The notes beneath the pieces are model-generated. The model saw only the letters and a list, made by a program, of their open reading frames with translations. It was not told the DNA's origin and did no database searches. Made by a program: the position numbers and the translations under genes. From Bacillota bacterium (GTDB lineage: Bacteria > Bacillota > Clostridia > Christensenellales > UBA1242), in contig WRCD01000002.1 of assembly GCA_009784185.1 (NCBI GenBank), forward strand, positions 53,384-117,383: DNA of 64,000 bases. The letters are read 5' to 3'. This document shows positions 15,676-49,330 of this stretch, piece by piece; position 1 is the stretch's first letter; the number at the start of each line of letters is the position of its first letter.

Positions 15676-15694
15676 AGAACTTTCCCAAAAACCC

Positions 15695-25268: not shown

Positions 25269-25311
25269 GTCATTGCGAGCAATTCTATTCCGGATTCCAA
25301 CGAAGCAATCC
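25269..25311 (+). repeat. Family B repeat in the rpoB leader
   Basis: GTCATTGCGAGCAATTCTATTCCGGATTCCAACGAAGCAATCC, nearly identical to 35850-35892. Confidence 0.85.
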
Positions 25312-29183: not shown

Positions 29184-32100
29184 ATGTTTGAACTAAATAA
29201 CTTTGATTCAATCCGGATAAGCATCGCAAGCCCTGAAAAAATCAGGGAATGGAGTCACGGAGAGGTTACTAAGCCGGAGACCATTAACTACAGGACGCTT
29301 AAGCCCGAAATAAACGGGCTGTTTTGCGAGCGTATATTTGGGCCTAGAAAAGACTTTGAATGTCATTGCGGCAAGTATAAACGAATCAGATACAAAGGAC
29401 ACCATTGTGAAAAGTGCGGCGTGGAAATAACCCGCAGCAAGGTGCGCCGCGAGCGCATGGGGCACATTGAACTTGCAACCCCTGTCAGCCACATCTGGTT
29501 TGTGCGGGGCGTGCCCAGCAGAGTTGGCAGTATATTGGAGCTTACGGCAAAAAGCCTGGAGCAGGTGCTGTATTATGCCAGCTATATTGTGCTGGACCCG
29601 GGCACAACCAAGTTTACTAAAAAGCAGATTATTTCCGATAAGGAATATCGCGAGGCTCTTGAAGAGTTTGGATACAAAAGCTTCAGAGCCGGCATGGGCG
29701 GAGAAGCTGTACGTGAACTGCTTAGTGAAATTAACCTTGAGGCTGAGGCTGCCGTTTTACGTGAGCAGATGACCACTACTAAGGGCCAGAAGAAGCTTAA
29801 AGCAATTAAAAAACTGGACATAGTAAACTCGTTTTTAAAGAGCGGCAACAATCCGCGCTGGATGATTTTGGACGTGCTGCCGGTTATTCCGCCGGAGCTT
29901 AGGCCAATGATTCAGCTGGACGGCGGCAGATACGCAAGCAGCGACCTTAACGACCTGTATCGCCGGGTTATTAACAGAAACAACAGGCTTAAAAAACTGA
30001 TTGACCTTGGCGCGCCCGATGTTATTGTACGTAACGAAAAACGTATGTTGCAGGAAGCGGTTGATGCGCTCATCGACAACGGCAAGCGCGGCAAGCCTGT
30101 ACAGGGTGCTAAGCAGAGAGAGCTTAAATCACTTACAGCTATGATTAGCGGAAAGCAGGGCCGGTTTAGGCAAAACCTGCTTGGTAAGCGTGTAGACTAT
30201 TCCGGCCGTTCGGTTATCGTGGTTGGACCTGAACTTAAATTGTATCAATGCGGAGTGCCTAAAGAAATGGCACTGGAGCTGTTTAAGCCGTTTGTAATGA
30301 AAAAGCTGGTAGAGCTTAACTTTACCCAGAACATAAAAAGCGCAAAACGTATGGTAGAGCGCGAAAAACCGCAGGTTTGGGATATCTTGGAAGAGGTTAT
30401 TAAAGACCACCCGGTTATTTTAAACCGTGCGCCAACCCTTCACAGGCTTAGCATTCAGGCGTTTGAGCCGGTGCTGGTAGAGGGCAGAGCTATTAAATTG
30501 CATCCTTTAGTGTGCCCGGGCTTTAACGCCGACTTTGACGGTGACACCATGGCTATTCATGTACCATTAAGTTTGGAGGCTCGAAGCGAAGCCCGTCTCC
30601 TTATGCTTGCCAGCAACAACATCCTTAAGCCGGCTTCGGGAGCTCCCGTAGTTACTCCTAACCAGGATATTATCCTTGGCTCATATTACCTGTCATTAGA
30701 AAAAGATGGCGCAATAGGCGAAGGTACAATGTTTACCAGCGAAGACGAGGCGCTGCTGGCTTACCAGGACAAGGTTATTGAGCTTCAGGCAAAAATCTGG
30801 GTGCGAAGAACGGTTGAGTTTGAGGGCAAAAATTACACCGGCAGAACTCAGACTACAACCGGAAGAATAATACTAAACCGTGTTGTTAGTCAGGATCTTG
30901 GTTTTGTTGACAGAACCAAAAAAGAAAACATATTCATGTACGAGATTCATTTTCCGGTTGGAAAAGGCAAAATGGGCGAGATTACTGGTGCTGCGTATGC
31001 TAAGCACGGAACAACAGCCACCGCATCAATGCTGGATAAAATAAAAGAAATCTGCTTTAAGTTCAGCACGGTGGGTGCGGCAACGGTAAACGTGTTTGAT
31101 ATGAAGATGCCGGAAGAGAAAGCCAAAATTATTGCCGAGTATCAGGAAATGGCTACCAAAAACGAAAAGTTGTTTGACCGCGGACTGATTACACGTGACG
31201 AAAAGGTTAACAAAAATGTTGAGCTTTGGAACGCTGCAACCCAAAAGATTAAAGCGGTTGTGGTTGCCGGTATGGACAAGTTTAACCCTATTAAGATGAT
31301 GGTAGACAGTAAGGCCAGGGGAACCGAAGAACAGCTTAACCAGCTTTGCGGAATTCGTGGAATTATTGCAAACGCTTCAGGTAAAAAGGTTGATATTCCG
31401 GTATTGTCCAGCTTTAGAGAAGGCCTTAGCAGCCACGAATACTTTATGTCTGCGCGCGGCGGACGTAAGGGTCTGGCCGACACGGCACTTAAAACGGCCG
31501 ACGCAGGATACTTAACCCGAAGGCTGGTTGACATAGCTCACGGTGTAGTGGTTGTGGAAGATGACTGCTTTAAGGCGGCGGGTGAAACTGTTAAGGGTCA
31601 GGTTGTTTCTGATATGGTAAACGGTGACCAGGTGATTGAAAAACTTGAAAACCGTATTGTAGGCAGGGTTAGCGTTGAAGATATTATTAACCCTAAAACC
31701 AGACAGCCGTTTGTTAAAGCAGGCGAACTTATATCTAAGGCTGCCGCAGATGCAATTGTTGCAGCCGGAATTAAGAGTGTAAATATAAGAACAATTCTTA
31801 CCTGCAGAAGCAAAAACGGTGTATGTGCAAAATGCTACGGACGTGACCTTGGCAGCACCGGCCTTGTTGAAGTGGGCGAAGCTGTTGGTGTAATTGCCGC
31901 TCAAAGCGTAGGCGAGCCCGGCACCCAGCTTACAATGAGAACCTTCCACACAGGTGGTATTGCCTCTGCTGCCGACATGACTCAAGGTCTGCCGCGTGTA
32001 GAAGAAATATTTGAAGCACGAAGGCCGGGCGGTGTGGCCATGGTCAGCGAGGGCGCCGGCCGGGTTACGGTACGCGATGTTGATAAACGTAAAGAAGTTG

Positions 32101-32789
32101 TAATTAAAAACGGTGACGGTGAAGTTAGTTACTTGCTTCCCGCAAGAAGTATTATTAAGGTTAAAACCGGTGACAACGTTGAATCAGGCACGCCTTTAAC
32201 CGAAGGCGCATTATACCCGCAGGATATTTTGCGTACTAGAGGGCTTAAAGATGTTCAGGAATACCTGCTTAAAGAAGTTATATCGGTTTATAAAAGTCAG
32301 AGCGTTGACATCAACCCTAAGCACGTAGAAATTATTATCAGGCAGATGCTGAGAAAAGTTAAAATCGACTCAAGCGGCGATACGCAATACATCCCCGGTG
32401 ATATGGTTGACATAAACGATTATGAGGAAGTTAACCAGAAAATTATTATGGATGGCGGAGTGCCGGCTACGGCAAAACGAATTCTGTTGGGCGTAACAAA
32501 GTCGAGTCTTACCACAACCTCGTTCTTGTCGGCAGCCAGCTTCCAGGAATCAAGCAGAGTGCTGACTGAAGCTGCAATTAAGGGTAAGGTAGACAGACTT
32601 GTAGGACTAAAGGAAAACGTTATTATTGGTAAACTTATTCCGGCAGGAACCGGCCTGAAGCAATATACTTCGGTTATGCCCGCCAACAGCGTAGACAGTA
32701 AAAGTGCAGCCAGCAAGTTTTTAAGCGGATTTAACAACCAGACAGCCGACGACGATTACGAAATAGCTAAGCAAGAATACAGTGACTAA
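29184..32789 (+). CDS. rpoC: DNA-directed RNA polymerase subunit beta'
   Basis: [42 protein letters not shown]. Confidence 0.99.
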
Positions 32790-32791
32790 TT

Positions 32792-32817
32792 AAAAAACTC
32801 CCAGACGGGAGTTTTTT
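32792..32817 (+). terminator. rpoBC intrinsic terminator
   Basis: AAAAAACTCCCAGACGGGAGTTTTTT. Confidence 0.85.
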
Positions 32818-32826
32818 GTATTAACT

Positions 32827-32869
32827 CCACACCCCCCACTTCGTGGCACCCCTCTTATAGAGGGGAATT
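32827..32869 (-). repeat. Family A singlet (reverse)
   Basis: CCACACCCCCCACTTCGTGGCACCCCTCTTATAGAGGGGAATT. Confidence 0.88.
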
Positions 32870-32907
32870 TTCTTGCTATTTAATTCCAACTGCGCTATAC
32901 TGTATTA

Positions 32908-33984
32908 ATGAAGTTTAAGCGGGACTATTATAATCCGGAGGATTCCGGAATCGGGTTTGTTGCCGGGGTGGTTGCACCTCAGATTATTATATTTGCCTTA
33001 GGAATAATTCTTGTTATTGTGGCTGCAATTGCCGGCGTAACTTACAACGAAATTATTACCACCGCACCGGCATTGTTTATTAGTGCGGCACTTGCCGAAC
33101 TCAGCTTTTATTTTGTATATTTAATTATTACAAAAGCCCGCAGAATAAACGGCGTAAAAGCCGCGTGGCTTAATAAAGGCGTAAATTTCAAAACCGTTGC
33201 GGTGCTGATTTGTCTTGGTGCGGCCATGACCGTGCTATTTTCTCCGATAATCGGAATACTGGATTATGTTATTTCGCTGACGGGTTATGAGTTAGCGGGC
33301 TTAAATCTTCCGCTTGATAATTTTGGATATTATCTGCTGGCCGTTTTGCTTATGGCTGCGCTTCCTGCTTTCTGTGAGGAATTTCTCTTTAGGGGAATTA
33401 TTTTAAACGGCTTGCGCAAATACGGAATGTGGGCAAGCGTGCTTATAAGTGCGCTATGTTTTATGCTGATGCACGGAAACATTCAGCAGACTGCATACAC
33501 GTTTTTTCTGGGCATAATGCTTGGGTATGTGGTATACAAAACCCGCAGCTTGTGGGCGGGAATTATATTGCACTTTGTAAACAACTTTATTGTTATTACC
33601 TTTATGTATTTGCACGAAATTGGCGTGCTGGAAGCTGAAGTTATGACTTCTGTCAGTTGGGCAGATGCGGGCTATGCGGTTGGGGCAATGATTATTGGTG
33701 CCGGAGCGGTTTGGCTTGCGGTATGGCTGATTAAAAAATGGAACACACCATCCGTCACTGCGAGTGTCTCTGGAGACGGATTCAAACGAAGCAGTCCCAT
33801 GGATAAAACTTCTGCCGAGGGGATTGCTTCGCCTGAAGATGTCTCGGGTGAGTCTCGCAATGACAGAGTGCCGCTAAAAGACTTGTTTAAATCCCCGTTT
33901 ACGGTGCTGATGTTTGCGGCAGGTCTTGCTATAGGTTTGGCGCTTTGGTTATATAACTTTATATATAAAGCATTTATTATTTAG
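32908..33984 (+). CDS. CPBP (Abi/CAAX) family intramembrane metalloprotease, with an in-frame repeat insertion
   Basis: PAFCEEFLFRG, FMLMH, ILHFVNN. Confidence 0.9.
   Translation: MKFKRDYYNPEDSGIGFVAGVVAPQIIIFALGIILVIVAAIAGVTYNEIITTAPALFISAALAELSFYFVYLIITKARRINGVKAAWLNKGVNFKTVAVLICLGAAMTVLFSPIIGILDYVISLTGYELAGLNLPLDNFGYYLLAVLLMAALPAFCEEFLFRGIILNGLRKYGMWASVLISALCFMLMHGNIQQTAYTFFLGIMLGYVVYKTRSLWAGIILHFVNNFIVITFMYLHEIGVLEAEVMTSVSWADAGYAVGAMIIGAGAVWLAVWLIKKWNTPSVTASVSGDGFKRSSPMDKTSAEGIASPEDVSGESRNDRVPLKDLFKSPFTVLMFAAGLAIGLALWLYNFIYKAFII
33754..33864. repeat. Family B inverted doublet inside the CPBP CDS
   Basis: GTCACTGCGAG...CGAAGCAGTCCC / GGGATTGCTTCG...CTCGCAATGAC, 111 bp. Confidence 0.85.
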
Positions 33985-33999
33985 GAGAGCAGAAAGCAA

Positions 34000-34107
34000 A
34001 ATTCCCCTTTGCTCCGCTAAGGGGTGGCAGGCGAAGCCTGACGGGGTAGTTGCTTGCGTTATCACATACCCCGCCCTTCGGGCACCCCTTTATCTTAAAG
34101 GGGAATT
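34000..34107. repeat. Family A inverted doublet
   Basis: AATTCCCCTT..AAGGGGTGGCAGGCGAAGCCTGACGGGGT ... ACCCCGCCCTTCGGGCACCCCTTT..AAAGGGGAATT. Confidence 0.88.
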
Positions 34108-34128
34108 AATTACAACACAGGAGTTAAC

Positions 34129-35334
34129 TTGGAAAACAACACCACAAAACAACCGTTAATAAAAAACAAACTGCTATTTTACACGGGGCTGGCTTATTTT
34201 ATTATTCTGCTGCTGTTTATTGGTCTCAGGGTGGCGTTTTTACTTATTGACTTTGGTGATATGCCGCTTGTATGGAAGGACAGGCTGTTTACAATCTGCA
34301 CTCAGATAATAATTATGGGTGCTGTACCCGTATTGCTTATATGGTGGTTCACCAGACCAACAAAGCAGGAATTTGTAAAAAGATTTTCGCTTAATACCGT
34401 AAACTGGCAATCCATATTATATACAATAGCTCTGGGTGTTTGTTTTTACTTTCTGACTATTGCAATTTCCAGTTTCTTTAACGGAATTATAGGTATGCTG
34501 GGCTATGCGCCGCCGGAGCCGGTTAAGGCAGATGTAACTGAGTCGCCGGCAGTCTATTTTTTGCTGGCGGTGCTGTTTACCGCAATTCTGCCGGGCATAT
34601 TTGAGGAGGTTTCGCACCGCGGAATGCTGCTTGGCGGGTTAAAAAGCCAGGGCAGTAACCTGCGTGCCGTAATACTCTGCGGATTGCTGTTTGGACTTAT
34701 GCACTTAAACATAACGCAGTTTTTCTATACTGCAATTATCGGTATGCTGCTGGCTCAGCTTACCATAATTACTAAGAGCATAATCCCCGCTATTATCATA
34801 CATATTGTAAGCAACTTTCTGGGCACGTATTTTTCACACGCAGACAAAAACGATTGGTGGCTGGGCGGCTTTTACGATTCAATAAACGGCTTTTTTGCCA
34901 GCAACAACGTTTTTGTGGTATTTATAGCAGTGTTTTTAATAATGTCACTTATTGTTTTTGTAATTCTGGGATTATTTATAAGGCTGTTTATTGAGCGCGG
35001 AAACAAAGACTTTAAAGATTTTGTTAAAAAGTTTAAAGCCAAAATGCAAGCCGACGGGCAGGCGGATGGAATTGACTTTAACAACCAGGCGTTAATGCTA
35101 AGCTATTACCGTCAGGTACAATTATTAAAACGGCAGTCGGAAGCACAGGCAAACGGCATGACCGATAGCGAATATGGCGCATATTTAAAAAAGCACGGTA
35201 TGCTGAATGTAATGCTGGCGGATGAGCGGGTGAGCATGGCTAAACCTTCGTTTTGGGAGAACTTCTTTTTTTACGCTTCAATTACGCTTGGGGTAATTGT
35301 AACCATATTTACATTTGTTTGGGGAGTATTGTAA
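34129..35334 (+). CDS. CPBP (Abi/CAAX) family intramembrane metalloprotease
   Basis: PGIFEEVSHRG, FGLMH, IIHIVSN; TTG start after AGGAG. Confidence 0.9.
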   Translation: MENNTTKQPLIKNKLLFYTGLAYFIILLLFIGLRVAFLLIDFGDMPLVWKDRLFTICTQIIIMGAVPVLLIWWFTRPTKQEFVKRFSLNTVNWQSILYTIALGVCFYFLTIAISSFFNGIIGMLGYAPPEPVKADVTESPAVYFLLAVLFTAILPGIFEEVSHRGMLLGGLKSQGSNLRAVILCGLLFGLMHLNITQFFYTAIIGMLLAQLTIITKSIIPAIIIHIVSNFLGTYFSHADKNDWWLGGFYDSINGFFASNNVFVVFIAVFLIMSLIVFVILGLFIRLFIERGNKDFKDFVKKFKAKMQADGQADGIDFNNQALMLSYYRQVQLLKRQSEAQANGMTDSEYGAYLKKHGMLNVMLADERVSMAKPSFWENFFFYASITLGVIVTIFTFVWGVL

Positions 35335-35790
35335 ATGCTGGAACTGAGAATTATTTGTGTAGGCGGGCTTAAAGAAAACTACTTTAAGCAAGCCGTAGAG
35401 GAATACACCAAACGCCTTAGCGCATGGTGCAATGTAAATATTATTGAGGTAGCGGAAGCTGCACCTGCAGGGAACGACCCGAGCCCGGCGGAGGCGGAGA
35501 GAATTGCCAGGCACCTGAAGGGCTATGTAATAGTCGGTGATATTGGCGGCAAAGCGTATACCAGCCCGCAGCTATCGGAAACAATAAACGATGTAATGTC
35601 CGGCGGAAACTCATGTATCAGTTTTGTAATCGGCGGTTCATGGGGCTTAAATGACACAATTAAGAAAAGAGCAGACCTGCGCCTGTCATTCGGAAGTTTT
35701 ACTTATCCGCACCAGTTGTTTAGAGTAATGGCGCTGGAGCAATTCTACCGAGTGTTTACTATTTTGAACGGTACGCCGTACCATAAGTAG
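35335..35790 (+). CDS. rlmH: 23S rRNA (pseudouridine1915-N3)-methyltransferase
   Basis: EYTKRLS, FVIGGSWGL, LSFGSFTYPHQL, EQFYR, PYHK. Confidence 0.95.
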   Translation: MLELRIICVGGLKENYFKQAVEEYTKRLSAWCNVNIIEVAEAAPAGNDPSPAEAERIARHLKGYVIVGDIGGKAYTSPQLSETINDVMSGGNSCISFVIGGSWGLNDTIKKRADLRLSFGSFTYPHQLFRVMALEQFYRVFTILNGTPYHK

Positions 35791-35892
35791 AATGAATAAT
35801 GAATAGTGAATAATGAATAATGTCGGGTCGCTTCGCTCCAGGAAGTGCTGTCATTGCGAGCATTTCTATTCCGGATTCAAACGAAGCAATCC
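35791..35892 (+). repeat. Mosaic repeat: (AATGAAT)x4 + GGGTCGCTTCGCTCC + complete family B unit
   Basis: Same order of modules as 15534-15620. Confidence 0.85.
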
Positions 35893-36071
35893 GCTGGACA
35901 GAAGTCAAGAGTTGTAGGTGCACAAAGCAAAATTACCCAATTCCTTCGGGGCGGAAAGACGGAGTAACAGCGGTCAAAGAAGAGTCCGTGCTGTTGGCCG
36001 CGGCAAGGCCGCGACTAGCCGCTTGGCGTTAGCCGAGCGCAAAAAACAAGTACAATTCATATATGTTTTGT

Positions 36072-37043
36072 ATGAAACACAACCAGTTAGAGCAACAGAT
36101 TTTAGAGTTCAAAAACTCCGGCATCAAAGTGTTCAGCATCGGTAAGTCTGTGCTGGGAAGAAACATCTGGTGCGTGGCGGTGGGGAGCGGTGAGCCAAGT
36201 GTCATCATTCAATATGCTATTCACGCCAGGGAGTACATAACTGCTTATTTGGCGATAGAGCATATCAAACTTTCGTTTGGCTACCCCGTCTGTCTCGCTG
36301 GCGCAAAATCTAACCATTGCCATTGCGAGACGGCACCAATAATTCCCCTCTTGAGAGGGGTGGCACGAAGTGACGGGGTGTGTTTAGCGAAGCAATCCCT
36401 TGGGTTGGGTGCAATTTACTTTATCCCATGTGCTAATCCCGATGGAGTTGCTCTTGCGCTGGATGGAGGAAGTGACTTCAGCCTATGGAAGGCAAATGCA
36501 AATGCTGTTGACCTTAACCGCAACTTTGATGCCAAATGGGGACAGGGTACGGACAATAAGTTTGAACCAGCCTCAGAAAACTATATTGGCAAACACGCTC
36601 ATAGCGAGCCGGAGACCAGGGCACTGGCGGAATTTACCTTAAAAGTAAAACCCAAACTTACAATCAGTTATCACTCCAAAGGAGAGGAAATATATTACGA
36701 GTTCGGACAAACAGGCGTTCGCCTGGAGCGGGATAGGAAAATAGCGGAAGCTATATCCGGCATAACCGGCTATACAATTAAATCCACGCCCGGCAATACC
36801 GGAGGCTATAAAGACTGGTGTATGCAAAAATTAAAAATCCCCGCCTTGACAATTGAAGTTGGTAATGATATTCTTAACCACCCGATAGGAGTGGAACACC
36901 TGCCGGAAATTTTAGCCCAAAACAAAAATGTGCCGGCAAAGGCACTGGATATTGCAAATAAAATTCCCCTCCTTGGAGGGGTGCCCAAAGGGCGGGGTGG
37001 TTTAAAAAGGAGAAAGCAATGGAAAACGAGAAAGCATTATTAA
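36072..37043 (+). CDS. M14 family zinc carboxypeptidase (gamma-D-glutamyl-mDAP peptidase-like), with repeat-derived segments
   Basis: GKSVLGR, HAREYIT, NPDG, VDLNRNF, SEPET, SYHSKG, TIEVG. Confidence 0.88.
   Translation: MKHNQLEQQILEFKNSGIKVFSIGKSVLGRNIWCVAVGSGEPSVIIQYAIHAREYITAYLAIEHIKLSFGYPVCLAGAKSNHCHCETAPIIPLLRGVARSDGVCLAKQSLGLGAIYFIPCANPDGVALALDGGSDFSLWKANANAVDLNRNFDAKWGQGTDNKFEPASENYIGKHAHSEPETRALAEFTLKVKPKLTISYHSKGEEIYYEFGQTGVRLERDRKIAEAISGITGYTIKSTPGNTGGYKDWCMQKLKIPALTIEVGNDILNHPIGVEHLPEILAQNKNVPAKALDIANKIPLLGGVPKGRGGLKRRKQWKTRKHY
36319..36398 (+). repeat. Family A unit (36341-36382) nested inside a family B unit, inside the M14 CDS
   Basis: GCCATTGCGAG...[AATTCCCCTCTTGAGAGGGGTGGCACGAAGTGACGGGGTGTG]...CGAAGCAATCC. 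Confidence 0.85.
36962..37000 (+). repeat. Family A singlet forming the C-terminal codons of the M14 gene
   Basis: AATTCCCCTCCTTGGAGGGGTGCCCAAAGGGCGGGGTGG. Confidence 0.85.
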
Positions 37044-37480
37044 CAGACCCGGAAGTTAAACCAACAAACAAAATTATAGCCGCAGGTCTTGGCGGGGCAA
37101 GTGCGGCATACAACAACTTTCTTAGCGGGCTAAACGTACAGGACATCTCGCTTATGGAATGGCGGTACTATAACGACGGCAAGGCGTGGCTCTCTAAAGG
37201 CGAATACAAATGGACGACCCCGCGAGGGGCAAACAAGGTAAAGCCGCTGTTTTGGCTTTCCATCTGGGAAGGGTTTTTTAAAACGGCGTTTTTCTTTTCG
37301 GAGAAGCTTAGAGGGGACTTGCAAAACTTGCCATTAAGTAAAGAAACAAAGGAATTGATAGCAAACACCAAGCCAATGGGCAAAACAATGCGGTTTCTTC
37401 CGGTTGTGCTGGATATAAAGAGTGAAAAACAGCTTGCGGATGTTTATATGCTTGCGGAATTTAAAAAAGCCCAAATTTAA
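37019..37480 (+). CDS. DUF3788-like protein
   Basis: LLTDPEVKPT, EWRYYNDGKAWL.K, FWLSIWEG.FK; AGGAG SD. Confidence 0.7.
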   Translation: MENEKALLTDPEVKPTNKIIAAGLGGASAAYNNFLSGLNVQDISLMEWRYYNDGKAWLSKGEYKWTTPRGANKVKPLFWLSIWEGFFKTAFFFSEKLRGDLQNLPLSKETKELIANTKPMGKTMRFLPVVLDIKSEKQLADVYMLAEFKKAQI

Positions 37481-37491
37481 AGGGGAGAACT

Positions 37492-38298
37492 ATGGAAAGG
37501 AAACAGGAACAACTTTATTATAAAAACAAGAAACACATTGCATCAAGGGTGCAAAAAGAGCCGCAGCCTGATGAGGACAAGATTTTAGCATATCTTAAAA
37601 GCGGCAATTGCTTCGTAGCTTCGCCTGGAATTGCTGATGATATTTTTGCGCCTGAAAAACGCATTCTTGGCCCGTACTGTTATACCGATGGCGAGTGGGA
37701 CTGGGACAGTGCGCTAGTCTATTACATAGAAAACTACCACTTCAGAATCTCAGACGAATTTCTTGCGCATATAAAGGCTAAAAACTGGAAGTGTCATAGA
37801 ATGTCAAAAAAAGAGATATATGGATTTTGCAAGGCAGATTATATGGAAACATTAATGCGTATAGCTCTTGTTGAAGCCAAAAAGGCTGCTGCTGCCGACG
37901 AAGTGCCGGTGGGTGCTGTGGTTGTTAGAGACGGAGAGATTGTTGCGCGGGCACATAACTGTAAAATAAAAAACAACTCGGCATTTGCGCACGCCGAGCT
38001 AATAGCAATGACCAAAGCCGCAAAAAAACTGGGGGATTGGCGCCTTAACGAGTGTACGCTTTTTGTAACGTTAGAGCCATGCCCCATGTGCGCGGGTGCA
38101 ATAATAAACGCCAGAGTAAAGGAAGTGGTGTTTGGGGCATACGACCCCAAAGCCGGCTGCTGCGGCACGCTGTATAACTTGCCGGAAGATAAGCGCTTTA
38201 ACCACCGAGCAAAAGTAACCGGCGGAGTGCTGGAAGAAGAATGCGGCAGGATACTGACAGAGTATTTTAAAACGAAACGGAAAAATTCCCCTCTATAA
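37492..38298 (+). CDS. tadA: tRNA adenosine(34) deaminase TadA with an extra N-terminal domain of about 117 aa
   Basis: EVPVGAVVV, AHAEL, VTLEPCPMCAGA, YDPKAG; TadA core begins at ATG 37843. Confidence 0.88.
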   Translation: MERKQEQLYYKNKKHIASRVQKEPQPDEDKILAYLKSGNCFVASPGIADDIFAPEKRILGPYCYTDGEWDWDSALVYYIENYHFRISDEFLAHIKAKNWKCHRMSKKEIYGFCKADYMETLMRIALVEAKKAAAADEVPVGAVVVRDGEIVARAHNCKIKNNSAFAHAELIAMTKAAKKLGDWRLNECTLFVTLEPCPMCAGAIINARVKEVVFGAYDPKAGCCGTLYNLPEDKRFNHRAKVTGGVLEEECGRILTEYFKTKRKNSPL

Positions 38299-38328
38299 GA
38301 GGGGTGCCCGCATTGGGGCGGGGTGTGG
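38284..38328 (+). repeat. Family A singlet; supplies the tadA stop codon and is the left bound of the cargo block
   Basis: AATTCCCCTCTATAAGAGGGGTGCCCGCATTGGGGCGGGGTGTGG. Confidence 0.88.
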
Positions 38329-38521
38329 GCAATTGAGAATAAAATTCGTAGGTCAGAAAGACCCTGCTAATGGTGGTGAAAATGAGTAAAAAACCACAGG
38401 ATGCGTGGGGAAAAGTGGCAAATTTCAGCCCACCTACGAACTTAATAGTTCATACGACTAATTCACTATGCACCCACAATATGGCAACCGCATACTGCCA
38501 CAATATCAAAAGGAGAAAAAT

Positions 38522-39091
38522 ATGACTGAAATTTGTTATCAAGTTTTTGAAACAGTGGATGCTGTAAAAGAAAAGCTGAGAGAGGCTGGTTTCATTTTTT
38601 CTGAGTCATACGATAACCACGATTCATATTTCACGAGATTTGGCAAAGAAGAAGCGAAAAATCTTGAATATAAAAAATTGTTGGATAGTTCATTAATTGT
38701 TCGCTGGATTAAGAGTGAAAACTGGGAAGTGAAAAACATTCTTCATAAGACAAGAATTTTAGATAAAAAAGGGAATGTTATTAGTGAAGAAAAAACCAAG
38801 ATAGCTTGCAGTGACACAATTAAAGCTAAAATGATTTTTATTGATGCGGGTCTTAATTGTTGGTGCGATTTTGTTGTTCAAAACAATGAGTACAAAAAAG
38901 ACGATATTATTATAAATCTACAAGTTGTTGACAATTTAGGTGTGTTTATTGAAATAGAAGAATGCGATTCTATAAAAAACTATTCAGATAATGCTAAGTT
39001 GTATTACTTAAAAGAAATCATACAAAAGTTAAAAATAGAAACGGGAGAAGACTTCAGTTGCAAAAAACCCTATATGTTTCTGAACAGATGA
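38522..39091 (+). CDS. CYTH-domain (adenylate cyclase/triphosphatase-like) protein
   Basis: D.YF, LIVRW, EEKT, VVDNLGVFIEIEE; start after AAGGAG; AT-rich. Confidence 0.7.
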   Translation: MTEICYQVFETVDAVKEKLREAGFIFSESYDNHDSYFTRFGKEEAKNLEYKKLLDSSLIVRWIKSENWEVKNILHKTRILDKKGNVISEEKTKIACSDTIKAKMIFIDAGLNCWCDFVVQNNEYKKDDIIINLQVVDNLGVFIEIEECDSIKNYSDNAKLYYLKEIIQKLKIETGEDFSCKKPYMFLNR

Positions 39092-39093
39092 AA

Positions 39094-39156
39094 CCACCTT
39101 ACCAATCGACCTACTTCAGGGCAGTCACCCTACCAATCGACCTACGGAAACAGTTG
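39094..39156. repeat. Family D cassette-boundary motif, two tandem copies
   Basis: CCACCTTACCAATCGACCTAC and CACCCTACCAATCGACCTACGGAAACAGTTG. Confidence 0.8.
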
Positions 39157-39310
39157 AAGACAAAGTTCGACAAAAAATTTGACGCAGCATGTAGTGGAGG
39201 AGAGAAAAAATGAAACACAACATACAGGGGTTGAAAAGTGGATTACACAAACTCTGCACTCCTTGCCGGAAAAGTGGTATACACCAGCGATATGAAAAGG
39301 GAGAAAACAT

Positions 39311-40156
39311 ATGAAACTAATTGGTGAAGGACGAGAAAGTAGTGCTTATTTTCTTGATGGTAAAACAGTTTTGTTGGTAGGGAAGAATAAAACTGCCATA
39401 GATAATTACAAAAAGCAAAAAACAATCTATAACATACTTGATGGCAAAGTCAAATGCGTAAAGATTCCAGAGAATGCTAATCTAATTGAACCATGCGAAA
39501 AGCATCCTTTTGGTGCTATGACAATTTCATATGTAGCGGGGGAGCCGTTAGATATAAAAGTTTTAACAGACGAACAAAAAATTAAAATAGGAAAACAAAT
39601 TGCACAGTTTGTTTATGAGTTTCAAAAAGTTGGTGAAAAACTAGGCAAAGAAGAGATAAAAAAGCTTCAAGAAATACAAATCAAAACAGATGCCAAAGCC
39701 GTAAGAGAATGTTTAGAACTTGTTAAGGTGCACTTTAGTGACGACGAGTATAGCAGGCTTGTAGAAGTTGCAAAACGATATAATGCAAAAATTAAGAATC
39801 GAACGCATATTTTACATCAAGGCGATTTGGGCGGCAGTAATCTTCTGACTGACAAAGACAGAAACCTTATCGGTATAATTGACTTTGAAGAAGTTGGTTT
39901 TTATATTCCAGAATATAAATTTAAGGGTCAGGGTCTTAGGAAAGATAAAATATTGTTCGATTCCTTGGTAAAGGAGTATCACAAACTTAGCGGGATACTT
40001 GTTAATGATACGGACTTTATGGATGTTTGTGAAATTATAACAATGATTTTGCATCTAAGACGTTTTTATTGTCTTGGGAGTCCTCAAATAGAAATGAGAG
40101 TAGGGATAATTAAAAAACTGCTGCAAGATTATTTTAATGGTGCGGTGGTAAAATGA
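39311..40156 (+). CDS. Aminoglycoside phosphotransferase (APH)/kinase-like protein
   Basis: IGEGRES glycine-rich loop, HQGDLGGSNLL, GIIDFE. Confidence 0.85.
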   Translation: MKLIGEGRESSAYFLDGKTVLLVGKNKTAIDNYKKQKTIYNILDGKVKCVKIPENANLIEPCEKHPFGAMTISYVAGEPLDIKVLTDEQKIKIGKQIAQFVYEFQKVGEKLGKEEIKKLQEIQIKTDAKAVRECLELVKVHFSDDEYSRLVEVAKRYNAKIKNRTHILHQGDLGGSNLLTDKDRNLIGIIDFEEVGFYIPEYKFKGQGLRKDKILFDSLVKEYHKLSGILVNDTDFMDVCEIITMILHLRRFYCLGSPQIEMRVGIIKKLLQDYFNGAVVK

Positions 40157-40165
40157 AATTACACA

Positions 40166-40197
40166 AATCAACCTGTGGAAACAACTTGTTGCACGCG
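40166..40197. repeat. Family D cassette-boundary motif
   Basis: AATCAACCTGTGGAAACAACTTGTTGCACGCG, 9 nt after the stop codon. Confidence 0.75.
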
Positions 40198-40242
40198 CCA
40201 AGAATGAAACATTAGCGCGAGAAGAATATTTAAAATGGAGGA

Positions 40243-40938
40243 ATGCAAGAAATGGTTGATATAAAAAAGCTTATAACTGAACTTGAAAACGACAATTTAG
40301 AGAAAGTAGACAGAAAATATTTTACACAAACTCAAATGGAGCGGGCAGCTTGTTGGGGCTACCCTAAAGGCCTTAGAATAATTAAGAGGTTGCTCAAATT
40401 GGGGGTTATTAAAAACATTAAACCCGGGTATGCACATTATGAAACGACTAAAAAATTTGAAACTTGGCAGGCAAGTATTATTGATATGGTTGCCAGTCTC
40501 TTAAGCGTACATTTTGGTGAACATAAGAGAATAAGCAGCAGTGCATATACAGCATTGAGGTCAGAAAAGGCTAAAATTTATGAATTTAATACCAAACTTG
40601 TTATAACCGGAGAACGGTATATGTTTTCGCTTTATCTAACGGAAGATGAAGAGGGTTGCAATTTAGAATTTCCGCTGTGGACAATGGAAGCTGACGGGTA
40701 TAGCATTGATATTGACAAACTGTCTGATAACAGCAGAAATTTGTTTGATAAGATACTGGATTTTCATAGTATAGATTTGGATGATATTAAAGGTTTATAT
40801 TACATAGCTTCACCTATTCAAGCCAATGCAATGAATGTGAGGCATGTTGTTTCAAGGATGTTATCGGTTGTTTTATTCTTGCCTGTGCTTGAAAACGGAG
40901 AATTTGAGGCAGTAGACCGGAAAAGACAAAAAGCCTAA
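40243..40938 (+). CDS. Hypothetical protein
   Basis: 231 aa AT-rich ORF with GGAGG SD (start could be ATG 40252). Confidence 0.7.
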   Translation: MQEMVDIKKLITELENDNLEKVDRKYFTQTQMERAACWGYPKGLRIIKRLLKLGVIKNIKPGYAHYETTKKFETWQASIIDMVASLLSVHFGEHKRISSSAYTALRSEKAKIYEFNTKLVITGERYMFSLYLTEDEEGCNLEFPLWTMEADGYSIDIDKLSDNSRNLFDKILDFHSIDLDDIKGLYYIASPIQANAMNVRHVVSRMLSVVLFLPVLENGEFEAVDRKRQKA

Positions 40939-40946
40939 ATAAATCG

Positions 40947-41017
40947 CAGCCCACCTTGCCAATCGACCTGCGGAAACAACTTGTCGCACGCGGGCACCCC
41001 TTTGGAGAAGGGGAATT
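40947..41017. repeat. Family D motif joined to a partial reverse family A unit (right bound of the cargo block)
   Basis: CAGCCCACCTTGCCAATCGACCTGCGGAAACAACTTGTCGCACGCG followed directly by GGCACCCCTTTGGAGAAGGGGAATT. Confidence 0.8.
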
Positions 41018-41058
41018 TTGGCTTGACTATTTCCTTGCAGTTATGCTAAACTCTCTAC

Positions 41059-41880
41059 ATGGAAAAGTTGGTTTTAAGTGAGCAGGTTGAGCGGGCGCTT
41101 GATATTGAGCCCCGGTTTGCCGTACAAAAAGAAATACTGGATGATGATGTTGCGGTGATAATTTTAAAAACGCACAATCCCGCTTTTGGCATATCCGGCA
41201 AATCATATGAAATTAAGCTCTGGGGAAGAACCAGCTATGAGTGGCTGGCTCTGGCCTTTGATATGTGCCCGATTGAGTATATAGAGTGCGGTATGGAAAG
41301 CGATATATTAACCGTAATTAAGCCGCATTTAACGGACAAGAAATACACAGCAGTGTTTTATGCTGATACTCCGCTAATTACCCGCAAAACCTTTTTATCT
41401 ATCATGGACTATGTAAAAACAAAACGCCTGAATGTGGCAAAGCTCCCAAGAGGTTACGTTTTTGTAACCGATTTTGTGCGCGGGGCAAGTAATATATATT
41501 CTAATCAGAGTATTTACTCGGACGAAGCTGAGTTTATGCCGGTGCTGAATCTGAACAGCTTAGCAGAGGCAAGCAAGGTGCTTCATGACAGGATTATTGA
41601 ATTTCACCGGGGCAGCGGTGTTTTGATTGTTGACGCCGCTTCCGTCTTTATTGATGCGGATGTAATAATCGGCAGGAATACTGTTATAAATCCAAACAAT
41701 ATTATCAGCGGCCTCTCCGTAATTGGTGACAGTGTTATGTTAAACTCCGGCAACAATATAATTAACAGCAAGCTCGGTTCAAACGCAGTTGTAAGCTATA
41801 GCGTAATTGAAGGCTCGGTTATTTTGCCCGCCGCCGTGGTTTTGCCTTTTACACATATAATCGGAGGCAAAAAGAAGTGA
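41059..41880 (+). CDS. Degenerate, short GlmU-like protein
   Basis: YADTPLIT, GVLIVDAASVFIDADVIIGRNTVINP hexapeptide start; syntenic with pth; lacks the LAAGxGTRM motif. Confidence 0.75.
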   Translation: MEKLVLSEQVERALDIEPRFAVQKEILDDDVAVIILKTHNPAFGISGKSYEIKLWGRTSYEWLALAFDMCPIEYIECGMESDILTVIKPHLTDKKYTAVFYADTPLITRKTFLSIMDYVKTKRLNVAKLPRGYVFVTDFVRGASNIYSNQSIYSDEAEFMPVLNLNSLAEASKVLHDRIIEFHRGSGVLIVDAASVFIDADVIIGRNTVINPNNIISGLSVIGDSVMLNSGNNIINSKLGSNAVVSYSVIEGSVILPAAVVLPFTHIIGGKKK

Positions 41881-42398
41881 AACTGATAGCAGGACTTGGC
41901 AACCCCGAACCCAGATTTAACGGCACGCCTCATAATGTAGGCTTTGCCGCGATTGACGTTTTATGTCAGCGGCTGGGAGTTAGCAAAACCAAACACAAAA
42001 AGGGCGCAGAAGTGATTTTTGCCGAATACGAAGGCGCAGAATTAATATTGGCAAAGCCGTTAACCTACATGAACTTAAGCGGGCTAAGCATAAGAAAACT
42101 GGTTAAAAAATACAAAATTGCATTAAATGACATTGTGGTTCTGGTAGACGATATTAGCGTAAAGCCGGGCCAGGTAAAGCTTAAAGAACAGGGGAGTGCA
42201 GGAAGCCACAACGGTTTAAAAAACATTGCGGCCGAACTTAACTCGCTGGATTTTAAGCGCCTTAGAATTGGTGTGGGTGAGCCCGCGCCGGGGCAGGACT
42301 TAAGTGATTATGTTTTGGGCAAGCTTCCCGCAGGGATAAAAGCACAAGTTGAAGAGGGAATCTGCCTGGCGGCGGATTTGGCTTTAAAACAAGTTTAA
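41877..42398 (+). CDS. pth: Peptidyl-tRNA hydrolase
   Basis: LIAGLGNP, HNVGF, KPLTYMNLSG, GSHNGLK, RLRIGVG. Confidence 0.95.
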   Translation: MKLIAGLGNPEPRFNGTPHNVGFAAIDVLCQRLGVSKTKHKKGAEVIFAEYEGAELILAKPLTYMNLSGLSIRKLVKKYKIALNDIVVLVDDISVKPGQVKLKEQGSAGSHNGLKNIAAELNSLDFKRLRIGVGEPAPGQDLSDYVLGKLPAGIKAQVEEGICLAADLALKQV

Positions 42399-42495
42399 AT
42401 AAAGGCGGTCAGTTAATAATTAAACTGCCTTTAAGTGATTGATTTTTTCCTGCGCTTGTATTATAATGGTGTATTGTAAAAGGAGTAGGCTTGCT

Positions 42496-44166: not shown

Positions 44167-44201
44167 CAAACAAAAAACACCTGTAGGTGTTTTTTGTTTG
44201 C
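44166..44201 (+). terminator. Intrinsic terminator
   Basis: GCAAACAAAAAACACCTGTAGGTGTTTTTTGTTTGC. Confidence 0.8.
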
Positions 44202-44202
44202 A

Positions 44203-44362
44203 ATGAAGTGCCTGCAGCATGAAGATATGAAGACACTTACGTTTATGAAGAGCCAGCGAGTTGGCATTATAGCAAAATTAAATGGCACTTCTCTTCATGT
44301 TGTGTGAGCAACACTTCATAAGGCGAAGCCGGCTTCGTGAGCAAGCGCGCTTGCGTCTTCAT
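44203..44362. repeat. Family E element (ATGAAG x4 ... CTTCAT/CTTCGT x4 with mini-hairpin spacers)
   Basis: Related copy at 45601-45750; both start ATGAAGTGCCT and share ACTTCATAAGGCGAAGCCG. Confidence 0.75.
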
Positions 44363-44407
44363 AAAAAGTCTGCTTCCCTAATATACTACTCCTATAAGGA
44401 GATAGGT

Positions 44408-44683
44408 ATGGAATCAGAGATTAAAAAATCATTGCCCGTTAATCACAAACTTATATTAGATAACCGCAAGGCCTTAAGCCTGACGGGCATTACCAAAATG
44501 GACAGTATAAACGAAACGCATTGCGAATGCAGTATAGGCAGTCAGTTTTTGAGTGTAACCGGCAGCGGTATACATATTGTTAAACTGGATGTGGAGCAGG
44601 GCGTATTAGAACTGGAGGGCAGTATTGACGGCGTAAGGTATTCCGGTGAGCGCAAGAGCGTATTAAAAAGGCTGTTTAAATAA
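44408..44683 (+). CDS. yabP: YabP/YqfC family sporulation protein
   Basis: HKLILDNRK.LSLTGI, L.VTG.GIHI.KLDVEQG.LELEG.ID; synteny. Confidence 0.88.
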   Translation: MESEIKKSLPVNHKLILDNRKALSLTGITKMDSINETHCECSIGSQFLSVTGSGIHIVKLDVEQGVLELEGSIDGVRYSGERKSVLKRLFK

Positions 44684-45178
44684 TTGCTGTATACAACTCT
44701 TGGGCAGGGGTATGTTTTTCTGGCGCTTTTAGCATTGGGTGCGGGGGCAAGTTTAGCCTGCCGTCCGCTTTTGCTATATGTCAAATTAAAATTCCCCTCA
44801 GGGCCGGACAAAAAACATACAGATACGAGAGCTGTCATTGCGAGCCTGGCTAGCGGAGCCAACAAACGAAGCAATCTTCAATATAGTACTCATTTATTTA
44901 AAAAAGGGCTTGTTTTTACTGTGGACCTACTGGTCTGCCTGTTTTTTGCAGGCGTGTTCTGGTTTGGGCTTTTGCTTTTTCATTTTGGGGAGTTCAGGCT
45001 TTTTTGTTTGCTGGGGTTTTTAACCGGAATTTTACTGGAAAAACTATTGCTGGCAAAAACAGTTGATTTTTTATTATTAAAAGCGTATACTCTGCTGGCT
45101 AAGATAGTTTTAAGATTGAGGTCTAAGCTATGCAGAAAACCAAAACCAAAACAGGATTTAAACTCGGCAAAACAATGA
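44684..45178 (+). CDS. yabQ: Spore cortex protein YabQ-like, with a repeat-derived loop insertion
   Basis: Q..VFL, DLL, GEFRLF..LGF..G; lies between yabP and the divIC-like gene. Confidence 0.75.
   Translation: MLYTTLGQGYVFLALLALGAGASLACRPLLLYVKLKFPSGPDKKHTDTRAVIASLASGANKRSNLQYSTHLFKKGLVFTVDLLVCLFFAGVFWFGLLLFHFGEFRLFCLLGFLTGILLEKLLLAKTVDFLLLKAYTLLAKIVLRLRSKLCRKPKPKQDLNSAKQ
44834..44876 (+). repeat. Family B unit inside yabQ
   Basis: GTCATTGCGAGCCTGGCTAGCGGAGCCAACAAACGAAGCAATC. Confidence 0.8.
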
Positions 45179-45414
45179 TTTTTGGCCTTATTGGCGTTGG
45201 GGCGTTTGTTTTGGTGCTGCTTGGCCAGTTTATAACCATGGGGGTGCTAAACGCAAAAGAAGCGGCCCTTAGGGCAGAGTTGGAGCGGGTGCGGGCACTG
45301 GAAGAACAGTACATGGCAAGTTTAAGCGAAGAAGAGCTTAAAGCATATCTCCTGCAAAAGCTGCTGGAGGCCGGGTACGGAACGGACGGTGCACCATATC
45401 TGCAAGAAGACTAA
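45130..45414 (+). CDS. DivIC/FtsB-like septum formation initiator (TM + coiled coil)
   Basis: Basic N-terminus, single TM, coiled coil; position after yabQ. Confidence 0.6.
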   Translation: MQKTKTKTGFKLGKTMIFGLIGVGAFVLVLLGQFITMGVLNAKEAALRAELERVRALEEQYMASLSEEELKAYLLQKLLEAGYGTDGAPYLQED

Positions 45415-45486
45415 ACTGATTTTATTTTGCATTTTCTATTGACATTGATGGTTTTATAATATAAACTATGATAGTTTTCTTTATAT

Positions 45487-45563
45487 CGCGGGGTGGAGCA
45501 GTTCGGCAGCTCGTTGGGCTCATAACCCAAAGGTCGTAGGTTCAAATCCTACCCCCGCTACCA
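45487..45563 (+). tRNA. tRNA-fMet (CAT), initiator
   Basis: Unpaired C1, three G-C pairs in the anticodon stem (TTGGG-CTCATAA-CCCAA), TTCAAAT T-loop, CCA end; TTGACA promoter upstream. Confidence 0.95.
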
Positions 45564-45600
45564 TTAAAATAAAAAAGCCGGAAGACTTTTTTATTTTAAA

Positions 45601-45750: not shown

Positions 45751-45760
45751 TCTAAAACGT

Positions 45761-45837: not shown

Positions 45838-45892
45838 TTTCAAATTACACCCTTATGTTTCATGTTTCTCGTTTCACCTTTCACGTAAACAT

Positions 45893-47949: not shown

Positions 47950-48877
47950 GTCACGGGGACGGAGGTGTTGACACAGAAAACAGTTGACAACGTCCACAAA
48001 AACTCTTACAATCTAAATTGTAGGAGTTTTTGTTTATGCCAAGGAAAGCAAGAAAAGATACAGATGGAAAGTTTTTCCATGTAATGGTGCAGGGGATTGG
48101 TAAAGAATATATTTTTCCTGATGACGATTGCAAAGGCTATTATCTATCCTGTTTGAAGAAAAGTAAAACCAAGCTTCCCGCTAAAATACTTGCTTATTGC
48201 GTGATGGGCAACCATGCGCATGTTTTGGTGAGTGTTCAAAATGCGCAGGAGCTAGCTTTGTTTTTAAGGCAAGCAAACGGAGATTACGCCAGATATTATA
48301 ACAACACTCGCAACAGGGTGGGCTACGTGTTTAGAGACAGGTATCGGAGCGAAGTGATTCAAGATGAGCGATATTTAATACATTGTGTGGCATACATACA
48401 CAACAACCCGTTAAAGGCGGGGTTGGTGGAACGTGCAGAAAACTATAAATATTCAAGCTATGTTAATTACTTAACCAAGAAGGGCATGGTAGATTTTGAT
48501 GAGGCGGCTAAGTTGTTTGATACAAGTGAGAGAAGCATGAGAGCTATCATGTTGGAAAAAACCGGAGCGAACTGGCTGGAGCATGACGACAAAGAATATG
48601 AAGACAAACACAAAGTATTGACTGAATTAATAAAAAAGTATAATATATCGTCAAAGGCATCGGTTAGAAACGAAGAACTTGCTAAGGCGCTGACTATGGA
48701 GTTGCAAGAGAGAAGCGGTGTCAGTTTGCGGGAAGTCGCAATATTATTGGAGGTTAGCCGAGAATGGTTAAGAAGAGTTGTGTCAACACCCCCGTCCCCC
48801 TGACCATCCCCGTGACCACCCCCGTCCCCCTGACCATCCCCCTGACCACCCCCGTCCCCCTGACCATCCCCCTGACC
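47950..48877 (+). mobile_element. RAYT-like Y1 transposase element with 25-bp inverted ends and a tandemly amplified right end
   Basis: 47950-47974 and 48780-48804 are inverted repeats (23/25 match); a 30-bp unit is repeated three times at 48787-48876. Confidence 0.8.
48036..48803 (+). CDS. REP-associated tyrosine transposase (IS200/Y1_Tnp HUH family)
   Basis: MPRKAR, FHVMVQG, AYCVMGNHAH (HUH), GYVFRDRYRS, YIHNNPLKAG, YKYSSY, C-terminal HTH. Confidence 0.92.
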   Translation: MPRKARKDTDGKFFHVMVQGIGKEYIFPDDDCKGYYLSCLKKSKTKLPAKILAYCVMGNHAHVLVSVQNAQELALFLRQANGDYARYYNNTRNRVGYVFRDRYRSEVIQDERYLIHCVAYIHNNPLKAGLVERAENYKYSSYVNYLTKKGMVDFDEAAKLFDTSERSMRAIMLEKTGANWLEHDDKEYEDKHKVLTELIKKYNISSKASVRNEELAKALTMELQERSGVSLREVAILLEVSREWLRRVVSTPPSP

Positions 48878-49330
48878 ATGGACAAAAAAGAGTTTTTCAG
48901 AATTACGCAGGAAGTCTTTGCTGAATATGGGTTTAAGGTGGATGGGAAGTATTTTTATTTAGATTTGTCAGAGGTTCATATTACTGCAGTCCTTGCAAAA
49001 GCACATGGCATTTATTTCTTGGGGTATAATTTTAGTATTAAAGCAATACATGAAGGGGAAATTAAGCCTAGAGACGAATTTGCCGGACACGACAGTCACT
49101 TGATAAACATGAGCAATTATAAAAATGAACGGTGGCTTGAATATGAAAACATGCCAAAAGAGACGTACATTAATGACCTAAAAGAAATGCTTCCAAGATA
49201 TTTTAATCCGTACAAAAAAGATGCTATAGGTTACATTAAAAAAATTGCTGTTATACCGGGCGTTATTTACAAAAAAGACATAGTGGTAATCTTCAAAGAA
49301 GCGCAGGCATATTTAGGAATCAAGTATTAA
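48878..49330 (+). CDS. Hypothetical protein
   Basis: ATG right after the tandem repeats; the longer ORF-track start translates the repeats. Confidence 0.65.
   Translation: MDKKEFFRITQEVFAEYGFKVDGKYFYLDLSEVHITAVLAKAHGIYFLGYNFSIKAIHEGEIKPRDEFAGHDSHLINMSNYKNERWLEYENMPKETYINDLKEMLPRYFNPYKKDAIGYIKKIAVIPGVIYKKDIVVIFKEAQAYLGIKY

Follow-up and report, generated by a model that had tools for sequence, protein, structure and literature searches.

The window studied here, a stretch of 64,000 nt from a Bacillota genome (contig C2:53384-117383), carries within a gene for a CPBP intramembrane protease a 111-nt palindromic doublet that is a copy of a dispersed repeat family, here called family B. The doublet is very probably read through in frame by its host gene, as happens with the Rickettsia palindromic elements (RPEs), and borne as a tolerated passenger. 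This reading is supported by other host genes of the family, namely those for LeuRS, ValRS, MnmE, MnmA (at two sites) and a P-type ATPase. A preliminary description, made from the letters of the stretch, had proposed a 111-bp doublet of exactly 37 codons, in frame between two transmembrane helices of the protease, with intergenic relatives at 25269 and 35850. Each of these points held: the sequence at 33754-33864 is as first described, its 37 codons lie in frame inside a 358-aa open reading frame (ORF), helices are predicted on either side of it (residues 251-278 and 323-356), and the two other copies exist, are intergenic and consist of single half-units. The features concerned are the following.

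33754..33864, no strand assigned: 111-nt inverted doublet of family B, codons 283-319 of the host ORF
33754..33796, plus strand: left half-unit, GTCACTGCGAG-N21-ACGAAGCAGTC, two box mismatches against the family consensus
33822..33864, minus strand: right half-unit, GTCATTGCGAG-N21-GCGAAGCAATC, boxes identical to the consensus
33797..33821, no strand assigned: centre of symmetry, CCATGGATAAAACTTCTGCCGAGGG, where the family consensus reads CCC-N-GATAGAA-S-TTCTATC-N-GGG
32908..33984, plus strand: host gene, CPBP / Rce1-like intramembrane protease, 358 aa, frame unbroken across the element and C-terminal helix following in the same frame
33331..33591, plus strand: Pfam Rce1-like core, residues 142-228, with E157, E158, R162, H189, H222 and N226 all upstream of the insert
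25269..25310, plus strand: single half-unit of family B, intergenic, crossed only by an unsupported 95-aa ORF
35850..35891, plus strand: single half-unit of family B, intergenic, just past the stop of a 151-aa ORF (35335..35790)
44834..44876, plus strand: single half-unit of family B in a putative 164-aa ORF (44684-45178) whose YabQ match is below the Pfam cut-off

The CPBP gene and its insert

The element begins 846 nt past the start of the ORF (33754-32908 = 846 = 3x282), that is after 282 codons, and its 111 nt are therefore exactly the 37 codons that follow. The translation around it reads ...KKWNTPS-VTASVSGDGFKRSSPMDKTSAEGIASPEDVSGESRND-RVPLKDLFKS..., and the peptides predicted across the two junctions include WNTPSVTASVSGDGFK and TSAEGIASPEDVSGESR. 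Membership of the host in the CPBP family is supported by a match to PF02517 (Rce1-like) over residues 142-228 (E 5e-23, 81.6 bits against a cut-off of 22.4) and by the EExxxR, FxxxH and HxxxN residues (E157, E158, R162, F185, H189, H222 and N226), which are invariant across the 24 sequences compared. An AlphaFold model of the ORF was confident on both sides of the insert (mean pLDDT 88.6, pTM 0.86); its sole long low-confidence coil, at residues ~279-322 (pLDDT 42-55), lies off the catalytic core. A repeat search returned inverted arms at 33751-33798 and 33820-33867 (48 nt, 73% complementary, spaced by 21 nt), and the 111 nt were predicted to fold as RNA at -58.9 kcal/mol compared with -34.9 +/- 3.5 in shuffled sequences (z -6.9; 0 of 200 shuffles as good). 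Directly downstream, at 34129..35334, lies a Pfam-supported CPBP paralogue of 401 aa that carries no family B element and has a long charged C-terminal extension ahead of its last helix; tandem CPBP pairs are kept in relatives.

We compared the gene with orthologous ORFs taken from 19 genomes of its taxonomic family, 26-49% identical where they could be aligned, and with five database homologues. The family B repeat was not found at any of the 19 orthologous loci. A gap of about 37 residues at this loop had been expected in orthologues; equally long loops occur instead in many relatives that lack the repeat, yet these loops are not homologous to the insert. Every relative has a hydrophilic stretch between its penultimate and last helix, ranging from ~10 to ~90 aa and unalignable, and because the loop is hypervariable in all of them the comparison cannot decide the matter at this site. 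The two closest database homologues (49% and 47% identity) have KK or KR before the loop and PLKELFK with the final helix after it, around loops of their own of 20 and 50 residues. The frame downstream of the CPBP element is thus the conserved one, with the PLK(D/E)LFK motif and last helix common to the homologues.

Family B in the genome

The genome comprises 1.16 Mb in 19 contigs, with 44% G+C and an estimated completeness of 94%. A half-unit pattern of GTCATTGCGAG, 12-34 nt and CGAAGCAATC, with up to two substitutions allowed per box, identified 82 half-units that form 63 elements, 19 of them inverted doublets and 44 singles. A profile search (nhmmer) gave 89 half-units; the seven extra ones were all partial, and three singles had a decayed second arm. 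When aligned, the half-units showed the consensus cTGTCATTGCGAG, ~21 variable nt, (A/G)CGAAGCAATCCC, N4, ATAGAA, or in short TGTCATTGCGAG, ~21 nt, ACGAAGCAATCCC. Two inverted units meet at a TAGAA-S-TTCTA centre, and singles terminate at the point corresponding to this centre of symmetry of the doublets. Folded, a doublet forms a long hairpin with its outer and inner boxes paired and an internal loop made of the middle segments. Their lengths are 111 nt (ten of 19), 110 nt (three), 112 nt (two), 113 nt (two), 123 nt (one) and 138 nt (one). The CPBP element belongs to this family, as both of its arms match the pattern, its length is the most frequent one and its centre aligns with that of the other doublets.

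In the window, box GTCACTGCGAG was found seven times at up to one mismatch, compared with 0.25 expected, and none of 100 shuffles reached this count; matches to the second, inner box alone were not significant (five against 2.6 expected, with five reached in 9 of 100 shuffles). Across 61 genomes of the taxonomic family, 78 pattern matches fell in this genome, three in one other (G051) and none in the remaining 59. Family B is restricted to this lineage and nearly confined to this genome.

In-frame copies in other genes

Eighteen genes with Pfam support contain 20 elements between them, each 20 residues or more from both ends of its host. The hosts include tRNA-related enzymes (MnmE, MnmA with two sites, TruB, LeuRS and ValRS), MutL, MurD, RsmE, a P-type ATPase, an ABC/FtsX fusion, two Gate-domain membrane proteins, a radical-SAM enzyme, a GTPase, a GNAT protein, a YtxC-like protein and a DUF4097 protein. 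Four further elements lie in three ORFs with no or weak Pfam support, and a few touch gene ends (the C-terminal tail of the ATPase, and N-terminal extensions, themselves doubtful, of adenylate kinase and a MiaB-like gene).

Since family B is nearly confined to one genome, orthologues of its hosts should show gaps where the elements lie. Six insertion sites were compared in proteins that align well, and all correspond to gaps in orthologues:

LeuRS: extra ~34 aa, VIASPTSEANKRSNP..., segment lacking in 9/9 orthologues
ValRS: extra 17 aa, VSLRDAPDTTSNEAIP, segment lacking in 9/9 orthologues
MnmE: extra ~30 aa from two units, segment lacking in 9/9 orthologues
MnmA, site 1: extra 11 aa, segment lacking in 9/9 orthologues
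MnmA, site 2: extra 15 aa, segment lacking in 9/9 orthologues
P-type ATPase: extra ~100-aa composite, segment lacking in 8/9 orthologues, the ninth having a shorter unrelated insert

Both MnmA gaps are also seen against solved MnmA structures. The MutL doublet, like that of CPBP, sits in a variable linker where comparison with orthologues is uninformative. The CPBP, GNAT and MutL doublets are read in the same element frame and give V-x-A-S...RS(S/N)P...IAS.E..SG..RND. Across all hosts, however, all three forward frames (VIAS..,.SLR.., CHCE..) and reverse frames, including ..IAS...RND, are used; with all three forward and two reverse frames represented in different hosts, conservation must act at the level of the DNA.

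ORFs, crudely called, take up about 91% of the genome, but only ~20-24 of the 63 elements lie in genes. A count of in-frame against disruptive insertions, suggested in the preliminary description, gave the 20 in-frame elements above and no gene split by an element in 20 regions. This check covered 20 regions of the 39 non-genic elements: among 42 flanking ORFs scanned by Pfam, no pair resembled one split gene, the flanking ORFs being distinct and complete genes or else whole paralogues. Among intergenic singles, 88-92% of the forward frames are open, compared with 47.5% for shuffled windows, and frame 1 stays open through 50-75% of intergenic doublets, compared with 14%; the TGA in CTCGCAATGAC closes one frame on each strand. 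The idea that in-gene copies are older than intergenic ones was also considered and set aside, as box mismatches did not differ (0.41 in genes vs 0.70 between genes, p 0.11) in a comparison that sees only units with up to two mismatches per box.

Proposed mechanism and alternative explanations

We propose that a family B copy, non-coding by origin, was inserted into the gene at the hypervariable loop that joins the protease's last two membrane helices. The copy may have survived there because the doublet measures 37 codons, because the family is poor in stops and because the site would tolerate any hydrophilic linker. The gene would then have been read through the element, giving a protease with an extra disordered loop of 37 residues which is likely to be a tolerated passenger and not a functional domain. 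A filter of this kind, in which insertions within genes are kept only if the frame is preserved and the site is a loop or linker, would also account for the other in-gene copies. The DNA of the family would have moved by a copying process that resembles transposition.

Several points weigh against this interpretation. There is no empty site for the CPBP gene, the nearest relatives with available DNA being only 31-38% identical and all of their loops variable, so that the case for insertion comes from family membership and not from direct observation. Without the 37 residues, the CPBP loop would be only ~13-15 aa long, shorter than that of most relatives, so the insertion may have displaced part of a loop that was already there. 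In one homologue (P0002, ...VTAES...ATKDR...) the loop could stem from an earlier copy at this site that has since decayed. Two of the seven in-gene doublets measure 113 nt and one 123 nt from box to box, which leaves the true ends of the element, and any target duplication, undefined. In addition, a hairpin of -59 kcal/mol in the mRNA could hinder translation or attract RNases, and the sequencing runs that match the stretch consist of DNA contigs only.

Three other explanations were weighed against read-through of a tolerated passenger. If the element had broken the CPBP gene, leaving it dead or truncated, the open frame would be luck and the downstream helix a relic. An open frame is not rare in family B, as the proportion of intergenic doublets open in frame 1 (50-75%) shows, and the downstream paralogue could cover the function. 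The frame that follows the element nevertheless encodes PLK(D/E)LFK and the last helix shared with homologues, the invariant catalytic residues are intact, the structural model is confident on both sides of the insert and the same read-through is present in the essential genes for LeuRS, ValRS and MurD, which cannot be dead. We consider a dead gene very unlikely. It also seems highly improbable that the mature protease lacks the 37 residues, the element being removed by RNA processing at the hairpin, by translational bypass or after translation. The stability of the RNA hairpin (z -6.9) and boxes conserved far more than a neutral passenger requires would fit such a route, but excision would have to be followed by re-ligation, of which there is no sign here, the element matched no Rfam family, intron or ribozyme, and the length classes together with the lack of stops indicate selection on translation. 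Rickettsia proteins decorated with RPE-1 are, in the account given in PMC3733652, expressed in vivo.

The remaining explanation reverses the direction of descent: the segment would be a native, selected module, a hydrophilic linker spread by recombination, with the intergenic copies as its debris. The likeness of the CPBP, GNAT and MutL doublet peptides would be expected from such a module, as would in-gene box conservation no worse than that of intergenic copies. We give it scant probability: the three forward and two reverse frames in use place the conservation at the level of the DNA, most copies are intergenic, the palindromic symmetry and the boxes are common to non-coding copies in many phyla (see below) and the insert is predicted to be disordered.

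Relationship to repeats in other phyla

One genome per species was scanned for the exact box pair GTCATTGCGAG / CGAAGCAATC at a spacing of 18-24 nt, and the pair was found at more than 122 loci in many phyla, two Rickettsiaceae included. Counted over whole genomes with one mismatch tolerated, the box pair reached these numbers:

Ca. Tisiphia genome: 460 copies
Omnitrophica genome: 111 copies
Rickettsia endosymbiont genome: 79 copies
Caldatribacterium genome: 12 copies
Flavihumibacter genome: 6 copies

In these copies the middle segment is a GC-rich hairpin whose stems differ, and an inverted copy often lies 15-25 nt further on. In the Rickettsia endosymbiont genome, 20 sampled regions contained 22 copies. 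ORFs of 150 aa or more run across three of these: the first is within a gene for a PrmC/TrmB fusion, the second within a glycosyltransferase ORF of 753 aa, and the third lies near the start of an ORF. Among 80 loci (~340 nt each) with the box pair, 21 had at least one frame open throughout (25 such frames). Apparent in-frame insertions number at least two among these loci, in a putative KsgA/RsmA-like methyltransferase of a Patescibacteria genome (L087) and a putative polytopic membrane protein of a gammaproteobacterium (L112), both named from their translations.

ATGAC is given as the palindromic signature of RPE-4 as well as RPE-6 and RPE-7 in an account of the R. japonica genome, where the tRNA (guanine-N7)-methyltransferase gene is listed with RPE-6/RPE-7 (PMC3767692). 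Di Nocera, De Gregorio and Rocco (2013; PMC3733652) file RPE-4 and RPE-6 of R. conorii in the superfamily of CGTC-tagged repetitive extragenic palindromes (REPs), which they describe from five phyla, chiefly in the form of inverted dimers and, in several species, with copies inside genes. The ATGAC signature is present in family B: the outer box reads GTCATTGCGAG / CTCGCAATGAC, and the boxes contain GTCAT/ATGAC. In the manner of RPEs, family B is an in-frame palindromic repeat in protein genes that is absent from orthologues outside the lineage. The host, in contrast, is not a member of the Rickettsiaceae. It has sporulation genes, and its kin are labelled Clostridia; the Firmicute assignment made earlier is borne out by SpoIIIAB/AC/AD and SpoVG, by YabQ- and YtxC-like matches (the former below cut-off) and by one homologue labelled 'Clostridia bacterium'.

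The units of this genome depart from those elsewhere. Beside the hairpin, GACGAAGCAATC (CGTC on the opposite strand) is read in 51 of 86 units from other phyla but in only 10 of 82 here; the published tag also has the forms TGTC and CCTC, and in the family B consensus TGTC precedes ATTGCGAG. The REP stem of 8-9 bp, which starts with A-T pairs, and its loop of 4-5 nt are missing from the local middle segment, which was no more stable than its shuffles (median folding z +0.5, as against -1.9 elsewhere), and ATTGC/GCAAT in the local unit makes only 5 bp around ~30 nt. Inverted dimers account for 19 of the 63 elements, singles being the majority. With the inner hairpin lost and CGTC mostly lost, family B here is therefore a derived variant.

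Family B and RPE-4/6/7 have in common that they are short palindromic repeats which, in a small host-associated genome, occupy both intergenic sites and in-frame positions in housekeeping genes, those for tRNA synthetases included, that they encode hydrophilic segments in exposed places and that they bear the ATGAC/GTCAT terminal motif. The PrmC/TrmB fusion copy of the Rickettsia endosymbiont adds to this, a gene of the same name being listed with RPE-6/7 in the R. japonica account. The two differ in host, an alphaproteobacterium for the RPEs and a termite-gut Firmicute for family B, and in the inner GC hairpin, which family B lacks. CGTC-tagged REPs, as published, carry a tag of 4 nt and resemble family B as stem-loop repeats that possess a short C-rich tail, occur in several phyla and have in-frame copies inside repair and tRNA genes; their units, however, have stems of 8-9 bp and loops of 4-5 nt, whereas those of family B are ~55 nt long with two boxes and a 21-nt middle. 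The PARCEL repeats of Mollicutes and others also consist of palindromic repeat DNA translated within genes of small-genome bacteria, but PARCELs are described as intragenic tandem repeats of surface proteins (PMC2996958), while family B is dispersed, mostly intergenic and present as single insertions in unrelated housekeeping genes.

The preliminary description held that the process known from RPEs operates in this Firmicute. In-frame read-through is indeed supported genome-wide, and the likeness to RPEs is probably one of kinship and not of analogy alone; this judgement draws on the box pair amplified in two Rickettsiaceae genomes and on the published ATGAC and CGTC marks. Rfam searches of the window and of nine canonical copies from other phyla, at the gathering threshold and at E up to 1, gave only tRNAs and chance-level matches. 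The boxes were not found as a repeat in the literature searched, where the strings occurred only in unrelated papers, and they are absent from the supplements of PMC3733652.

It is tempting, though tentative, to unite these repeats in one palindromic superfamily. Its two boxes, GTCATTGCGAG and CGAAGCAATC, would surround a varying hairpin in well over a dozen phyla, the ATGAC/CGTC-type elements of Rickettsia included, and stop-free forms would have arisen in small genomes. The conservation of 21 box bases over such distances would call for a shared trans-acting partner other than a REP-associated tyrosine transposase (RAYT), or for frequent horizontal spread. If this is true, small, gene-dense, host-associated genomes, such as those of Rickettsiaceae and of this termite-gut Firmicute, repeatedly yield a stop-free form able to occupy essential genes, and the present genome is a second natural experiment, independent of the first, in how selfish palindromes shape protein evolution.

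Significance and habitat

In-frame palindromic repeats in essential genes are best known from Rickettsia. In a 2024 review (PMC10969869), the passages on in-gene palindromic repeats call their frequency in Rickettsia unusual and only suppose their occurrence elsewhere. The genome described here clearly adds a second case, in an unrelated gut Firmicute whose genome is small, with copies in tRNA synthetases, tRNA-modifying enzymes and a mismatch-repair protein, and its RPE-like, CGTC-type variant is arguably new. It offers a route to two questions, what moves the elements and why reduced genomes tolerate them in proteins. For annotation it carries a warning: in genomes of this kind, 'hypothetical loops' of 37 aa, like many short ORFs, are encoded by repeats.

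One metagenome run from termite gut, perhaps the one from which the assembly was made, has a contig that covers 32849-34048 with no difference, and a second termite-gut study yielded seven short pieces of the stretch, all identical. No contig of these data bridges an empty site. In four termite-gut runs, summed contig depth over 30000-46000 rose 10- to 100-fold in the bins that contain repeats (33738-34271, 35340-35873 and 36942-37475), so that related repeats may be common in other members of the community.

Candidate mobiliser

The inverted doublets and orphan singlets of family B recall the architecture of REPINs, and the family might be a REPIN-type repeat copied by a single RAYT-like tyrosine transposase. 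The genome holds exactly one match to PF01797:

48030..48803, plus strand: RAYT-like ORF, 257 aa, the only Y1_Tnp (PF01797) match of the genome, candidate mobiliser, no flanking family B boxes

The ORF has an H-A-H motif and YIHNNP, which we take to be marks of a RAYT. The association expected of a REPIN and its RAYT is missing, however, as no family B boxes flank the gene and the repeat has no GTAG tag. Nor do the two occur together: the two Rickettsiaceae genomes with 460 and 79 box-pair copies have no PF01797 match, and within the taxonomic family PF01797 is found in 11 of 60 other genomes, none of them with the repeat, while G051, with its three pattern matches, lacks PF01797. Mobilisation by this RAYT, which neither the flanks nor co-occurrence supports, was rejected as an assignment, and we regard a REPIN/RAYT origin of family B as unlikely.

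More broadly, family B resembles both REPIN/RAYT systems and the miniature transposable elements with inverted repeats known as MITEs in its inverted doublets that fold as long hairpins, its orphan single units, its 12-nt terminal inverted repeats, its lineage-specific bursts and its lack of coding capacity of its own. It differs from them in that there is no GTAG tag, no flanking of a RAYT and no parent insertion sequence found with the same ends. Terminal inverted repeats are thus present as in MITEs, and no parent element was found by PF07282 or PF01797 (other transposase families not searched); TnpB-type PF07282 had no match in the genome. The only GIY-YIG match lies in a 663-aa frame. The surroundings of the RAYT-like ORF are themselves repetitive. 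It ends in, and is then followed by, a tandem repeat of ~27-30 nt, ACCCCCGTCCCCCTGACCATCCCC... (48790-48880), which also forms the N-terminus of the next ORF (48764..49330), and three AATCGCAAAATCAAAA-like direct repeats lie upstream.

Family A and mosaic elements

A second, more abundant palindromic family, family A, occurs at 33995-34105 of the window and genome-wide. Its boxes are AATTCCCCT / AGGGGAATT, GGGGTG / CACCCC and CGGGGTA / TACCCCG, and 355 terminal boxes form 264 clusters across the genome. Up to 41 clusters or single boxes of family A fall within ORFs of 200 aa or more, an upper bound that includes some chance 9-mers. Family A makes up a 40-aa insert in MnmE (residues 217-256) that corresponds to a gap in 9/9 orthologues, and it also forms part of the LeuRS insert and much of the ~100-aa ATPase insert. 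It too appears to be read through in genes.

The two families also occur joined. In a hybrid at 15609-15680 of the window, the family B outer box GTCATTGCGAGC runs straight into family A sequence, AAAATTCCCCTCTACAAGAGGGGTGCC..., and the same B-to-A junction is present in the LeuRS, RsmE and GTPase copies. A composite block of ~65 aa in the P-type ATPase (G000 C1:68876-72094, residues 482-546) recurs past the 3' end of the gene (C1:72023-72235), on the opposite strand and with 78% identity, and larger A/B mosaics are therefore copied as units.

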